From: a virus
Lineage: Duplodnaviria; Heunggongvirae; Uroviricota; Caudoviricetes
DNA length: 33,080 bases
Virus record (IMG/VR): IMGVR_UViG_2896601577_000002
Strand: one strand, 5' to 3'
Below the pieces are notes generated by a model. The model did not search any database and was not told where the DNA came from. It saw only the letters and a list, made by a program, of their open reading frames with translations. Below, in pieces: positions 2,385 to 31,420 of this stretch. Position 1 is the stretch's first letter, and every line of letters starts with the position of its first letter. Position numbers and translations under genes: made by a program.

Positions 2385-3553
<1,169 letters not shown>

Positions 3554-3926
3554 TGGAGCACCTGTGTTGTTCTGAGGTGAGCATATCACCTCTGTTCAGG
3601 TGGCCAAATTCAGTGTGCCACTTCATCCCCAGCCGGGAGGTAAATCCTCAACTGAAATAATTTCCGGCTCACTAATAAAGAATCGCCAGTCGCCCATGCC
3701 AAGTGAGGGATTTTTACGGAAACGCTTTTTTCTATCTGCCAACAAGTCAGCACGAGAACACTTCGCCTCTATCAGGCATGATGCTGAATTTCTGAATCCC
3801 ATAGCATCTGGCTGTTCTCCGGTACTGGTTACAGCAACAAAGCGGTCATGAAAGCAAACCTTGAACCCGTTGCGCTTAAGGAACTTGTACGCAATCTGAC
3901 AGAGTTCGTGGTGTGTTAACGCCATA

Positions 3927-5441: not shown

Positions 5442-5712
5442 TTTTCTCTTCACTCCGATATACAAGGATTACTACACCCCCTCTGCTGATTGCGCGAGCT
5501 GGATCCCCTGGTTCCATGCCGTCAATTCCGAAGGCTTCGGAAAACGCATTCATTGCCTTCTGGCGTTCATCCTGCTTACGGCGTTTATTCCATTTTTTCA
5601 GGAACAACAGCGACAGCCACCGTCCGCTGCAGAACACGATGTAAAAATAACCAAGGAGCGCCAGGCCGACATTCAGGGCCGTTTCTATGGTTAGTTGTGA
5701 GTCAGTTGCCAT
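5395..5712 (-). CDS. hypothetical small membrane protein
   Basis: N-terminal hydrophobic segment followed by a basic stretch; overlaps neighbour, start and extent uncertain. Confidence 0.3.
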   Translation of the reverse strand: MATDSQLTIETALNVGLALLGYFYIVFCSGRWLSLLFLKKWNKRRKQDERQKAMNAFSEAFGIDGMEPGDPARAISRGGVVILVYRSEEKNDDHKTTSRKNHISP

Positions 5713-5992
5713 TTCTTACCTGTTTAAGTAACTGGTTGAACATAACACTTAGGGGATTGCTGTATCCAAACGGCAGATTGTTTACGCAGTACAGAATCAT
5801 TTTGTTTTTTTCTCCAGTTCGTACTATTAACCCATTCCACAATAACCGTGATAATTTATTACTGATAGAAGTTGCGCTTCTTCCAAGTGCGAGGGATATA
5901 TCTTCTCTACTGCAATCTGGATTTTCCTGGATATACTCGATAACGGTCATGTGGTCCCTTTTACTTAATATCTGTTTCGGATTGCATGCCAT
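5702..5992 (-). CDS. hypothetical protein, possibly winged-helix DNA-binding
   Basis: ORF; alternative start at 5950. Confidence 0.45.
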   Translation of the reverse strand: MACNPKQILSKRDHMTVIEYIQENPDCSREDISLALGRSATSISNKLSRLLWNGLIVRTGEKNKMILYCVNNLPFGYSNPLSVMFNQLLKQVRNGN

Positions 5993-5998
5993 GAGTAT

Positions 5999-6556
5999 TC
6001 ATTTCGTTAATAATTTCATCCAGAAGGATTTCAAGCCCTTCTCGACCCATATCTGAAAGAATGAAACCTTTATCAGGGAAGTAGTGAGCATTTTCTGATA
6101 AAGAAACAGCGCTCTTCCCATTCCTTCAGCTTCGCCGTATTTTTGAATTAAATTCCATTCAATATACTGTTGTAAGGCAAATCGAATGGGGCCGGGATAT
6201 ATCGTCATAAACCCATACATCCCGTTATATACCACGGCGTGTTCAGTTGTTCCGTGTTCAGTTGTTCCGTGTTCATTCAGGATATCAATTGTGCCGTTCT
6301 TGTCTTCTTCTTCGTTGATGAATGTCGTCACATACAACCATCGCCACTGAGCAACCTTCATCTCAACCGGAAGTTTACCCAGTAATCCTGCTTCGTCGGC
6401 TTGCGCCAGACACTGAAGGATACGTAAACCTCGCACATTAGGAGTATCGAATTCTCCGGCATCCAGACGACGTATGGCGTCGTGATAATCAATCGTCATA
6501 CTGCCAGTTCGTATACCATTGGCTGTTGCTTCAGCCTGGAATTCATCGTATTGCAT
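5999..6556 (-). CDS. hypothetical prophage protein with internal 15-bp tandem duplication
   Basis: ORF; repeat 6241-6275 encodes EHGTTEHGTTEH. Confidence 0.5.
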   Translation of the reverse strand: MQYDEFQAEATANGIRTGSMTIDYHDAIRRLDAGEFDTPNVRGLRILQCLAQADEAGLLGKLPVEMKVAQWRWLYVTTFINEEEDKNGTIDILNEHGTTEHGTTEHAVVYNGMYGFMTIYPGPIRFALQQYIEWNLIQKYGEAEGMGRALFLYQKMLTTSLIKVSFFQIWVEKGLKSFWMKLLTK

Positions 6557-6561
6557 GATAT

Positions 6562-6762
6562 TTATTCCTCATCTTCATCTTCATCTTCATCTTCATCTGC
6601 TGGTGCAATAACGTCATATCCTGCCTTTTCTGCAATAAACAGGAATGTTGAAAGAGTTCCTACAAGTTCATCGTCATGAACATGGCGAATGAATATTACT
6701 TTCCCGTTTTTGATGGTCAGCAATATTCTGGTTTGTTCGTGTTCTGCTGTTTTCTGATGCAT
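6562..6762 (-). CDS. small acidic protein with (DE)n C-terminus
   Basis: ORF with GGGAGA SD; hexamer repeat 6569-6600. Confidence 0.45.
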   Translation of the reverse strand: MHQKTAEHEQTRILLTIKNGKVIFIRHVHDDELVGTLSTFLFIAEKAGYDVIAPADEDEDEDEDEE

Positions 6763-6936
6763 TATTATCTCCCGTATGCTTTACGCAGAAATAAGCAGGC
6801 AATATGCATGTAATTTTCACCGTATTGTGCAATAAGGCAGGCGGTTAGACTGGCCCCCTGAATCTCCAGACAACCAGTATCACTTAAATAAGTGATAGTC
6901 TTAATACTAGTTTTTAGACTAGTCATTGGAGTACAG

Positions 6937-7298
6937 ATGATTGATGTCTTAGGGCCGGAGAAACGCAGACGGCGTACCACACAGGAAAAGATCGCAATTG
7001 TTCAGCAGAGCTTTGAACCGGGGATGACGGTCTCCCTCGTTGCCCGGCAACATGGTGTAGCAGCCAGTTATTTCTCTGGCGTAAGCAATACCAGGAAGGA
7101 AGTCTTACTGCTGTGGCCGCCGGAGAACAGGTTGTTCCTGCCTCTGAACTTGCTGCCGCCATGAAGCAGATTAAAGAACTCCAGCGCCTGCTCGGCAAGA
7201 AAACGATGGAAAATGAACTCCTCAAAGAAGCCGTTGAATATGGACGGGCAAAAAAGTGGATAGCGCACGCGCCCTTATTGCCCGGGGATGGGGAGTAA
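6937..7298 (+). pseudogene. insC: IS2 insC (OrfA) with frameshift from a 4-bp deletion
   Basis: Product matches InsC up to ...QHGVAAS, then shifts frame; the native frame resumes at [14 protein letters not shown]... (7113-7298). Confidence 0.75.
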
Positions 7299-8161
7299 GC
7301 TTAGTCAGCCGTTGTCTCCGGGTGTCGCGTGCGCAGTTGCACGTCATTCTCAGACGAACCGATGACTGGATGGATGGCCGCCGCAGTCGTCACACTGATG
7401 ATACGGATGTGCTTCTCCGTATACACCATGTTATCGGAGAGCTGCCCACGTATGGTTATCGTCGGGTATGGGCGCTGCTTCGCAGACAGGCAGAACTTGA
7501 TGGTATGCCTGCGATCAATGCCAAACGTGTTTACCGGATCATGCGCCAGAATGCGCTGTTGCTTGAGCGAAAACCTGCTGTACCGCCATCGAAACGGGCA
7601 CATACAGGCAGAGTGGCCGTGAAAGAAAGCAATCAGCGATGGTACTCTGACGGGTTCGAGTTCTGCTGTGATAACGGAGAGAGACTGCGTGTCACGTTCG
7701 CGCTGGACTGCTGTGATCGTGAGGCACTGCACTGGGCGGTGACTACCGGCGGCTTCAACAGTGAAACAGTACAGGACGTCATGCTGGGAGCGGTGGAACG
7801 CCGCTTCGGCAACGATCTTCCGTCGTCTCCAGTGGAGTGGCTGACGGATAATGGTTCATGCTACCGGGCTAATGAAACACGCCAGTTCGCCCGGATGTTG
7901 GGACTTGAACCGAAGAACACGGCGGTGCGGAGTCCGGAGAGTAACGGAATAGCAGAGAGCTTCGTGAAAACGATAAAGCGTGACTACATCAGTATCATGC
8001 CCAAACCAGACGGGTTAACGGCAGCAAAGAACCTTGCAGAGGCGTTCGAGCATTATAACGAATGGCATCCGCATAGTGCGCTGGGTTATCGCTCGCCACG
8101 GGAATATCTGCGGCAGCGGGCTTGTAATGGGTTAAGTGATAACAGATGTCTGGAAATATAG
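7256..8161 (+). CDS. insD: IS2 InsD (OrfB transposase)
   Basis: 301-aa product matches IS2 InsD. Confidence 0.85.
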
Positions 8162-8288
8162 GGGCAAATCCAGCGGTCTTGTGTGATGCCATATTCTTTA
8201 TAAAAGTCACAATAAAGCCTCCTGCGGATTAAGGTTGTAACAATCCCCGGCGATAAAACCGCAATAAACGTTCAGGGCATATTTGTTG

Positions 8289-21077: not shown

Positions 21078-22391
21078 TTGGTTTCCTTGTTTATGCATTG
21101 CTGGTGATGTTCTGAAAAGTATAAATGATATTTTTGAATGTAAACCATAGAGCAGAATTATTTTTCTGATGTTGTTTATTGTTTATTTAAATGCAGGGTG
21201 GTTTATATCTCGTCTTGTAGTTTATCCATGCATATCTGCTTGATGATGAGGTTTTTATTTAAGGTATGGTTTTGTGTTTTTTCTGTATTACATGTCAGGT
21301 ATTTTAAAGAATCATTTTTCAGATGGTGGAAAGAACCATGGCATTTAAACACTATGATGTTGTCAGGGCGGCGTCGCCGTCAGATCTTGCGGAAAAGCTG
21401 ACACATAAACTGAAAGAGGGCTGGCAGCCGTTTGGTAGTCCGGTGGCCATAACCCCTTATACTCTGATGCAGGCGATTGCAGCAGAAGGTGCAGTAATCA
21501 GCGCCACCAGCAACCCGGAGTATTACTTTGTTGTGGTTCTGGCAGGGCAGTCAAACGGCATGTCGTATGGTGAAGGCCTTCCGCTGCCGGGGACATATGA
21601 CCGTCCGGACCCGCGTATTAAGCAACTGGCGCGTCGCAGTACGGTGACACCGGGCGGTGCAGCATGCAAATATAACGACATCATTCCGGCGGACCATTGT
21701 CTGCATGATGTGCAGGACATGAGCCGTCTTAACCATCCGAAAGCGGACCTGTCAAAGGGGCAGTACGGAACCGTGGGGCAGGGGCTGCATATCGCCAAAA
21801 AACTGCTGCCGTTTATACCGGCGAATGCGGGCATTCTGCTGGTTCCGTGCTGTCGTGGTGGTTCAGCGTTCACCACCGGAGCTGATGGCACATACAGTGA
21901 CGCGAGTGGTGCCTCGGAGAATTCAACCCGCTGGGGTGTGGACAAGCCGCTGTATAAGGACCTTATCGGTCGAACAAAAGCGGCACTGGAGAAGAACCCG
22001 AAAAATGTGCTGTTTGCCGTGGTGTGGATGCAGGGGGAATTTGATTTTGGCGGTACGCCGGCAAATCATGCCGCACAGTTTGGTGCGCTGGTTGATAAAT
22101 TCCGTGCAGACCTGGCGGATATGGCAGGCCAGTGCGTCGGTGGCTCTGCTGGCGGTGTTCCCTGGATATGCGGGGACACGACGTATTTCTGGAAGCAGAA
22201 GAACGAATCCACGTACCAGACGGTGTACGGCAGCTATAAAAATAAAACGGAAAAGAATATCCATTTCGTACCGTTCATGACCGATGAGAACGGGGTGAAT
22301 GTGCCGACGAACAAACCGGAAGAAGACCCGGACATTCTGAACCGCCCCGGGAATCCTGGAGACTAAACTTCCTGAGAAAGAGGTAAACAGG

Positions 22392-22718
22392 ATGACTAAA
22401 AATACTCGTTTTTCCCCCGAAGTCCGTCAACGGGCAGTCCGTATGGTTCTGGAAAGTCAGGGCGAATATGACTCACAATGGGCGACAATTTGTTCCATTG
22501 CTCCAAAGATTGGCTGTACGCCGGAGACTCTGCGTGTCTGGGTTCGCCAGCATGAGCGGGATACCGGGGGCGGTGATGGAGGGCTCACCACCGCTGAACG
22601 TCAGCGTCTGAAAGAGCTGGAGCGTGAAAATCGTGAACTGCGCCGCAGTAACGATATCCTTCGCCAGGCTTCCGCTTATTTTGCGAAGGCGGAGTTCGAC
22701 CGCCTCTGGAAAAAGTGA
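22392..22718 (+). CDS. IS629 OrfA
   Basis: 108-aa product [19 protein letters not shown]... Confidence 0.9.
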
Positions 22719-27537: not shown

Positions 27538-27906
27538 GCGACCTTATTAACCATGCGCGGTATTGTCGCCGTATCCCCGCATTAACAGAGACCGCAGCCC
27601 GACCGGGAGACTCCTCTGCGCGAGTGTGCGGGGATAATCAAAAACGATACACACCGGGGTTTACCGCGTTAACGGAGCGCGGCGTTGTCCCCTCATGGTC
27701 GCTGGTCCGGTGCGATGGTGGAAGAAACCGGACGATGTGTTACCTCGCAAGCTCTGTTATGTCATGTGTCTGATTTGTGATTTAAGTCGGATAATTGTCG
27801 TTGCCATTAAGCAGAGGATTGATGACCGACAGGGTGGCATTGTTAGAATAAGTGAACCGCCCCGGGAATCCTGGAGACTAAACTTCCTGAGAAAGAGGTA
27901 AACAGG

Positions 27907-28233
27907 ATGACTAAAAATACTCGTTTTTCCCCCGAAGTCCGTCAACGGGCAGTCCGTATGGTTCTGGAAAGTCAGGGCGAATATGACTCACAATGGGCGA
28001 CAATTTGTTCCATTGCTCCAAAGATTGGCTGTACGCCGGAGACTCTGCGTGTCTGGGTTCGCCAGCATGAGCGGGATACCGGGGGCGGTGATGGAGGGCT
28101 CACCACCGCTGAACGTCAGCGTCTGAAAGAGCTGGAGCGTGAAAATCGTGAACTGCGCCGCAGTAACGATATCCTTCGCCAGGCTTCCGCTTATTTTGCG
28201 AAGGCGGAGTTCGACCGCCTCTGGAAAAAGTGA
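27907..28233 (+). CDS. IS629 OrfA
   Basis: Identical product to copy 1. Confidence 0.9.
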
Positions 28234-29899: not shown

Positions 29900-31420
29900 G
29901 CTTTTACGTTAATTTGATGCAGATCAATCAATACGATAGTAAGGCAGTATGACTTTCCGTGAGACAGATGCTGGCCAACGTGGGATATTTAACGCGGGTT
30001 AACATCGTTGTCAGAGCCGCATGGGTGAGCTGTTGCTACACCCCGGTATTTCCACCACGGAGGCCAGCATGAACAACAATAACACATTGTACGTCGGGTT
30101 AGATGTTCACAAAGAATCGATTACTGTCGCTTATGCTATCAATTCAGAACCTGTTGAACTGATGGGTAAAATTGGCACATCACCTACTGATATTCAGAAT
30201 CTTTGTAAACGTCTCAGGTCAAAGTCATCGCAGGTCAGTATCGTTTATGAAGCGGGGCCCTGTGGTTATGGACTTTATCGTCGGCTGGTGAAATCCGGTT
30301 TTGACTGCATGGTCTGCGCCCCCTCACTTATCCCGAAAAAACCGGGGGAGCGGGTTAAAACCGATCGCCGTGATGCCATCAGACTTGTGCGTTCACTGCG
30401 TGCAGGAGATCTTTCTGCTGTCTACGTACCCGGCATTGAAGATGAGGCATTCCGGGATTTGGCCCGGGCATGGGCATCTGCCCGCGATGATTTACGGCAT
30501 GCAAGGCAACGTCTGAAATCGTTTCTTCTGGTTCATGGGGTCCATTATGTCGGGCGAGCAGATTGGGGCCCTGCACACCGACGCTGGCTCAGCAAATACT
30601 CATTCGAAAGTCCCTGGCGACAATTAGCTTTTGACGAACACCGTCGTACAATAGAAGACCGGCAGGCACAATGTGAACGGCTGGAATCCGCCCTGAAGGA
30701 GGCCGTTACCGAATGGAGGCTGTATCCGGTAGTAGAGGCGCTGCAAGCCATGCGAGGGATTCAGTTTATTACTGCGGTTGGATTAATTTCTGAACTGGGT
30801 GATCTGACCCGTTTTGAACATCCACGACAACTGATGTCATGGTTTGGTATCACGCCATCAGAATATTCATCGGGTGGAAGCAGACATCAGGGCAGCATTA
30901 CCAAAGCCGGAAACAGCTATGCCAGAAAGCTATTGGTCGAGGCAGCGTGGAGTTACCGTCATCCGGCACGCATCAGTCCGGCAATACAAAAAAGGCAGGA
31001 AAATTTACCCCGCCCCGTCATTGACAGAGCATGGGATGCTCAACTCAGGCTTTGTAAGAGGTATCGAAAACTTCAGGCCAAAGGAAAGAATGTCAATATT
31101 ACAATTGTTGCTGTTGCACGTGAGCTGGCGGGTTTTATCTGGGATATGGGCCGAATAGCAATGTCTGTCGCACAACAACCACAATGTCACAAATAAAAAT
31201 GAGAATAACCAGTTCCCTGAAGGCGACGTAGCCCGGTACAAGAGTAACCCACGTTAGCGCTTGGCGACGGCGGAACAAAGCTGATTCGCGACGTAAGAAA
31301 GTGGCAGGCTCATATGACGGACCTCTGTAATGCGGTATCCAACCCGCGAATATCAGCGTGATTCACCGTCGGATTTACTGCTACGTCGCCCTCAGGGAAT
31401 TAAACCTAAAAAGAAAATCG
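29900..31420 (+). mobile_element. IS110-family insertion sequence; boundaries cannot be set from sequence alone
   Basis: DEDD-type transposase gene; this family lacks conventional terminal IRs and TSDs. Confidence 0.3.
30069..31196 (+). CDS. IS110-family (DEDD) transposase
   Basis: N-terminal YVGLDVHKESITVAY and KTDRRDA motifs; C-terminal Transposase_20-like region; SD GGAGG. Confidence 0.85.
   Translation: MNNNNTLYVGLDVHKESITVAYAINSEPVELMGKIGTSPTDIQNLCKRLRSKSSQVSIVYEAGPCGYGLYRRLVKSGFDCMVCAPSLIPKKPGERVKTDRRDAIRLVRSLRAGDLSAVYVPGIEDEAFRDLARAWASARDDLRHARQRLKSFLLVHGVHYVGRADWGPAHRRWLSKYSFESPWRQLAFDEHRRTIEDRQAQCERLESALKEAVTEWRLYPVVEALQAMRGIQFITAVGLISELGDLTRFEHPRQLMSWFGITPSEYSSGGSRHQGSITKAGNSYARKLLVEAAWSYRHPARISPAIQKRQENLPRPVIDRAWDAQLRLCKRYRKLQAKGKNVNITIVAVARELAGFIWDMGRIAMSVAQQPQCHK

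Follow-up and report, generated by a model that had tools for sequence, protein, structure and literature searches.

Two short in-frame tandem repeats sit in adjacent minus-strand genes of a lambdoid prophage remnant, within its early-left region, and are very probably both products of slipped-strand mispairing in accessory genes: one is a hexanucleotide array of variable copy number and the other a one-off 15-bp duplication. They lie in a stretch of 33,080 nucleotides, called the window below. A first-pass annotation had taken both repeats, together with an "IS1 array", as pointing to active replication slippage at this locus and as possible length polymorphism markers. The signature of slipped-strand mispairing is indeed borne by both repeats, but nothing shows that slippage is raised at this locus. 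As length markers, the proposal holds for the hexamer, with 2-8 copies among relatives, and not for the 15-bp unit, of which 94 of the 95 other loci have one copy. The features around the two repeats are the following:

5961-6556, minus strand: larger early-left gene, PHROG 1515, 193 aa when intact (phrog_1515, E=1.1e-71, residues 1-160, up to the frameshift)
6076-6078, minus strand: homopolymer run short by 1 bp (C3 on the coding strand, GGG on the plus strand; alignment column 729, compared with 10/10 aligned relatives)
6238-6275, minus strand: 15-bp tandem duplication, 2.5 perfect copies, adding EHGTT (TRF period 15, 100% matches)
6562-6762, minus strand: small early-left gene, 66 aa, PHROG 340 (phrog_340, E=3.6e-23, residues 2-65)
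6569-6598, minus strand: hexanucleotide microsatellite, (AGATGA)5 or (GATGAA)n on the coding strand (TRF period 6, 5.0 copies, 100% matches)
6846-8172, plus strand: IS2 insertion (NF006918, IS2 TnpB, E=3.9e-218)

The gene order of intact relatives is int, xis, ..., Ea22-like, DUF4752, the two repeat-bearing genes, ..., cI, and this synteny confirmed the early-left placement originally given to these two genes, whose membership of PHROG 340 and PHROG 1515 is based on significant profile matches over most of their length. The integration site of these relatives, lambdoid prophages with a leftward early region, is adjoined by yecE. A megablast search with a query without the IS2 end matched the two-gene region in 244 of 5426 complete E. 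coli genomes (~4%), with nucleotide identities of 88-98%, and 24 phage records were also matched, most of them of Stx-converting phages, with Escherichia phage PhiR49_2 in addition. Further loci came from IMG/VR and metagenome contigs, which were scanned with variable-gap patterns. In the window, such a lambdoid prophage is present in decayed form, and the decay is heavy, as indicated by two identical IS3-family copies, a DnaB-type helicase fragment and an IS110-family transposase. The elements outside the two-gene region are the following:

2385-3589: IS3-family element
15538-16029: truncated DnaB-type helicase, a 163-aa C-terminal fragment
22338-22637 and 27853-28152: two identical IS3-family copies, 5.5 kb apart (108-aa and 296-aa ORFs)
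30021-31196: IS110-family transposase

The IS2 element is flanked by a 5-bp target duplication, GCGGT at 6841-6845 and 8173-8177, and GCGGT is single at the empty site of relative L001. This clean target duplication indicates that IS2 arrived by transposition, and the IS elements of the window were acquired in this way, by a mechanism other than slippage. IS2 is located 83 bp upstream of the start codon of the small gene, in the orientation opposite to that of the early-left genes, and separates the repeat-bearing genes from the remaining early-left operon and the cI region; it would be polar on the expression of both repeat-bearing genes.

The exact 185-aa product read from the larger gene of the window is on record in one assembly only (GCA_002949895.1; CP026867.1, 4.6 Mb). 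A partial protein annotated in Shigella boydii under four accessions (P0012) has the same 15-bp duplication, and a 745-bp S. boydii draft contig (L084, GCA_013998095.1), which was found in 2 samples and begins at the IS2 boundary, is identical to the window in 739/739 aligned bases, apart from the number of hexamers. From this identical contig and the protein annotations, the host of the window would most likely be S. boydii or a very close relative. The right end of the L084 contig corresponds to window position ~6105, at which no repeat element is present; this isolate may carry a further IS insertion within the PHROG 1515 gene, or the end may be a mere assembly break.

Whether the two repeats could occur by chance was evaluated by shuffling the window 300 times with dinucleotide frequencies preserved. 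Perfect period-6 runs reached 30 nt in the window and at most 17 nt in the shuffles, and perfect period-15 runs reached 38 nt in the window and at most 28 nt in the shuffles. As 0/300 shuffles reached the observed length in either case, chance is excluded and both the hexamer and the 15-bp repeat are beyond it.

The hexamer had been described as four to five ATCTTC units at 6569-6600. The array is perfect and has 4.7 copies in that phase, although its true end is at 6598, 2 positions before the limit first given. The five GATGAA units code for an (Asp-Glu)n C-terminal tail, and the 66-aa protein encoded by the minus-strand ORF 6562-6762 ends APADEDEDEDEDEE, in agreement with the DE-repeat tail previously recognized.

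Copy number was compared among relatives, and the hexamer was not invariant, since it varies both between loci with identical backbones and inside the S. boydii lineage. In the 93 loci other than the window, 2 copies were found in 41, 3 in 30, 4 in 6, 5 in 10, 6 in 4 and 8 in 2, all 93 arrays being pure and differing by whole units only. When the window and ten relatives were aligned, nothing but the number of AGATGA units (2-6) varied in the length of the small gene. Among loci with identical 490-nt flanks, at least 15 changes in copy number were counted, one haplotype alone including three loci with 2 copies, four with 3, three with 5 and one with 6; the sampled loci are not phylogenetically independent, many of them being from clonal E. 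coli lineages, so that the number of events is a minimum and does not measure a rate. The same variation on identical 490-nt flanks ruled out recombination between alleles as the main source of the hexamer variation. The window and the S. boydii draft contig share the IS2 junction and the 15-bp duplication, but have 5 and 6 hexamers, respectively, which means that the length of the array was altered inside a very recent lineage. The 5-copy allele of the window is common to 10 other loci.

Divergent clades have exactly 2 units in 31/31 loci, whereas the close clade ranges from 2 to 8. This is the length-threshold behaviour expected of microsatellites, the array being stable at 2 units and unstable from ~3 units up, as a pattern and not in terms of rates. 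With perfect repeats, whole-unit variation among close relatives and a length-dependent instability pattern, the hexamer is a true coding VNTR, and this pattern points to replication slippage as the way in which it changes. Whole 6-bp units would be gained or lost during replication with the reading frame kept, making the (Asp-Glu)n tail longer or shorter, and such changes in tail length, being tolerated, would build up into a variable-number tandem repeat.

The alleles of the small gene encode products of 60, 62, 64, 66 and 68 aa, for which many genomes have intact annotated proteins; at least 1000 contigs carry the 60-aa allele, at least 1000 the 62-aa allele and 84 the 66-aa allele. The C-terminus of every family homologue keeps at least ADEDEE. 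The AlphaFold model of the small protein has a core of three strands and one helix, with an overall pLDDT of 67, and no secondary structure is predicted for residues 48-66, where confidence is low. The acidic tail may therefore be tolerant of length changes and probably disordered, a call that is tentative because the model is just moderately confident. No Pfam, PDB-sequence or fold match was found for the small protein, and its core has weak, partial PHROG matches to C-terminal segments of annotated anti-repressors (phrog_4792, E=5.6e-6; phrog_2379, E=6e-4). The hexamer array sits upstream of a GAGGA Shine-Dalgarno-like motif, read from the sequence, that precedes the ATG of the next gene, so that the spacing between GAGGA and ATG is unaffected by changes in the number of units. 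Phase variation was rejected, since the units are in frame, all the alleles are intact ORFs of 60-68 aa and the ribosome-binding-site spacing is unchanged.

The 15-bp duplication reported at 6241-6270 was also borne out, with exact GTTCAGTTGTTCCGT units at 6241-6255 and 6256-6270 within the perfect period-15 array. The minus-strand ORF 5999-6556 encodes NEHGTTEHGTTEHAVV at this place, and its 185-aa product includes NEHGTTEHGTTEH. The parental single-copy sequence, AATGAACACGGAACAACTGAACACGCC, already contains, in the close clade only, a 7-bp direct repeat, TGAACAC, at 15-bp spacing, the close-clade single-copy reading being AA TGAACAC GGAACAAC TGAACAC GCC; divergent clades are without the second TGAACAC. 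One additional 15-bp unit is present between the TGAACAC repeats in the window, the only one of the aligned sequences (window plus ten relatives) to have it. The duplication would have arisen by one rare misalignment between these 7-bp repeats, separated by 8 bp, so that EHGTT was added to the 193-aa protein at a beta-hairpin turn.

Among the 95 other loci the duplication is present in a single one, contig L084 of the S. boydii draft. It was absent from 68 IMG/VR loci, from 16 metagenome loci and from 60/60 evenly sampled rows of 122 matching E. coli genomes, in which the span is 57 and not 72 bases, and the other 94 loci have one copy of the 15-bp unit. The duplication is thus real and independently assembled. 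As an event it is rare, one S. boydii lineage being its sole carrier; the site is a rare lineage marker and is not hypervariable. Residues EHGTT correspond to positions 95-99, at the turn between strands 89-93 and 99-107 in the model of the intact 193-aa protein (pLDDT 85, pTM 0.83). The block around them is conserved, with N94, G97 and T99 invariant, and no indel at this site was found in any other family member, for which reason the insertion may not be functionally neutral. The duplication would then have been fixed in one S. boydii lineage, where the PHROG 1515 gene is probably under relaxed selection, given the IS2 upstream and the frameshift found in the window.

This frameshift means that the listed ORF 5999-6556 (185 aa) is not the native gene, which would span 5961-6556 if intact and is carried by intact relatives in a 582-bp version. 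The homopolymer run at 6076-6078 reads CCCC, ACCC or GCCC in relatives and CCC in 0/88 other readable loci, and the 1-bp loss puts the last ~25 residues out of frame. The loss may be a real mutation or an assembly homopolymer error, and the L084 contig ends before the site. As judged from its sequence, the 185-aa ORF is best regarded as a frameshifted pseudogene of the 193-aa family in the window. Three homologues of the larger protein (P0085, P0086 and P0088) are frameshifted at positions other than that of the window, which suggests recurrent loss of the PHROG 1515 gene. No Pfam match was found for the PHROG 1515 protein of the window. A 96-aa MarR-like winged-helix ORF (HTH_24/phrog_1687) on the minus strand, at 5702-5992, overlaps the native 3' end of the PHROG 1515 gene by ~30 bp. 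Some 84-aa proteins annotated as "MarR family" share a 90% cluster with the 193-aa protein, and a 211-aa cluster member continues beyond the normal stop codon; there may be read-through or fusion alleles linking the PHROG 1515 and MarR-like genes.

The "IS1 array" that had been invoked in support of slippage is not an array of IS1 elements, but an intragenic repeat in one IS1 copy, located ~6 kb from the two focal repeats:

870 to off the window edge: IS1 copy at the left edge (single IS1 terminal-repeat match, 848-870)
82-216: 9-bp array, (CTGGGACGG)x15, perfect and in frame, inside insB of the IS1 copy

Several tandem or clustered IS1 copies were not found, the window having one IS1 terminal-repeat match. 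The best E. coli IS1 matches align in two pieces, covering ~90% of the query, which indicates that these copies are without the 9-bp array, and no assembly other than this one is on record with the array-bearing InsB product. When three CTGGGACGG units were searched in species-representative genomes, they were found in unrelated bacteria only, mostly high-GC taxa, with no IS1 and no enterobacterial genome among them. The 15-copy array may be a private expansion; otherwise it is an artefact of assembly. It does not show raised slippage at the repeat locus, and it lies in a mobile element 6 kb away whose history need not be local.

A slippage hot spot specific to this locus or strain, due for instance to a replication or repair defect, could be thought to underlie the IS1 array, the duplication, the hexamer and the 1-bp loss together, as four slippage-type features occur within ~6.5 kb of one genome and three of them (IS1 array, 15-bp duplication and C-run deletion) are private to the genome or its lineage. 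However, the hexamer is equally variable in dozens of unrelated E. coli hosts, so that its instability belongs to the sequence and travels with it, and the 5-copy allele of the window is shared with the 10 other loci; the IS1 array is in a mobile element and may predate its arrival. Loops of 9 and 15 nt are not known to be mismatch repair substrates, and for this reason one defect accounting for all four features is not obvious. No evidence of locus-specific slippage was found, and the hot spot is very improbable. It could alternatively be proposed that the length of the (DE)n tail is functionally tuned, the tail being an interaction module (a nucleic-acid mimic or a partner-binding segment, anti-repressor-like or anti-defence) under diversifying selection. 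The ADEDEE minimum at the C-terminus of all family members, the weak similarity of the core to C-terminal parts of annotated anti-repressors and the fact that expanded alleles are still intact ORFs in many genomes would agree with such a role, but the small protein has no Pfam, PDB-sequence or fold match, the distribution is skewed to short alleles, as mutation bias plus drift predict, and the gene, although IS2 lies upstream of it and the prophage is decayed, has 5 units in the window against 6 in the sister lineage, which fits neutral change. Tuning of the tail is accordingly considered unlikely.

Errors of one assembly were also considered as the origin of the repeats or of their copy numbers. 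Only one assembly is on record with the exact 185-aa product, and only one with the InsB product that bears the array, and a 1-bp homopolymer deletion is typical of long-read error. Nevertheless, the duplication is reproduced in independent S. boydii drafts (P0012 under four accessions and L084 in 2 samples), the hexamer alleles recur in hundreds of independent assemblies, with the 66-aa allele on 84 contigs, and arrays of 30-38 nt are well inside single reads. An assembly artefact was consequently rejected for the hexamer and the 15-bp repeat, both independently confirmed; it is possible solely for the C-run deletion and the IS1 array, and as a general explanation it is hardly credible. A more speculative proposal, to which a low probability is given, is that the (Asp-Glu)n tail is a tunable module of an early-left regulator or counter-defence protein, with the array as an evolvability device, or else that the private mutations report a strain-level defect in replication fidelity. 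Slipped-strand mispairing is the explanation preferred for both repeats, the changes being probably neutral.

VNTR loci with 6-bp units are used in MLVA typing of enterobacteria, such as STTR5 and STTR6 of Salmonella Typhimurium (PMC5183578) and those of O157 MLVA (PMC10062581). Like them, the PHROG 340 hexamer is a perfect head-to-tail coding array with whole-unit, frame-keeping changes, and is variable between very close relatives. Unlike them, it has fewer copies (2-8, mode 2-3), which implies a modest discriminatory power, and the prophage accessory gene to which it belongs is carried by ~4% of the complete E. coli genomes (244/5426). The lacI CTGG hot spot is the classic case of slipped misalignment between short direct repeats. 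The 15-bp duplication resembles such events in that a 7-bp direct repeat, TGAACAC, already flanked the site at a spacing of exactly one unit, a textbook substrate, but in contrast to the lacI hot spot it is a single event fixed in one lineage (1/95 other loci). Both repeats share their probable mutational mechanism and their location inside an ORF with simple-sequence contingency loci; however, as units of 6 and 15 bp are both multiples of 3, there is neither frame switching nor on/off switching.

Of the two repeats, one is a coding microsatellite of an ordinary type and the other a duplication specific to one lineage; they add a further case to a familiar class of feature. Lying in accessory genes of a prophage in decay, they have little biological weight. 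In annotations, the 185-aa ORF should appear as a pseudogene of the 193-aa family, with a frameshift. The hexamer is usable as a minor length marker among carriers of the prophage, and the 15-bp duplication together with the IS2 junction at 6845/6846 constitutes a specific marker for one S. boydii lineage.
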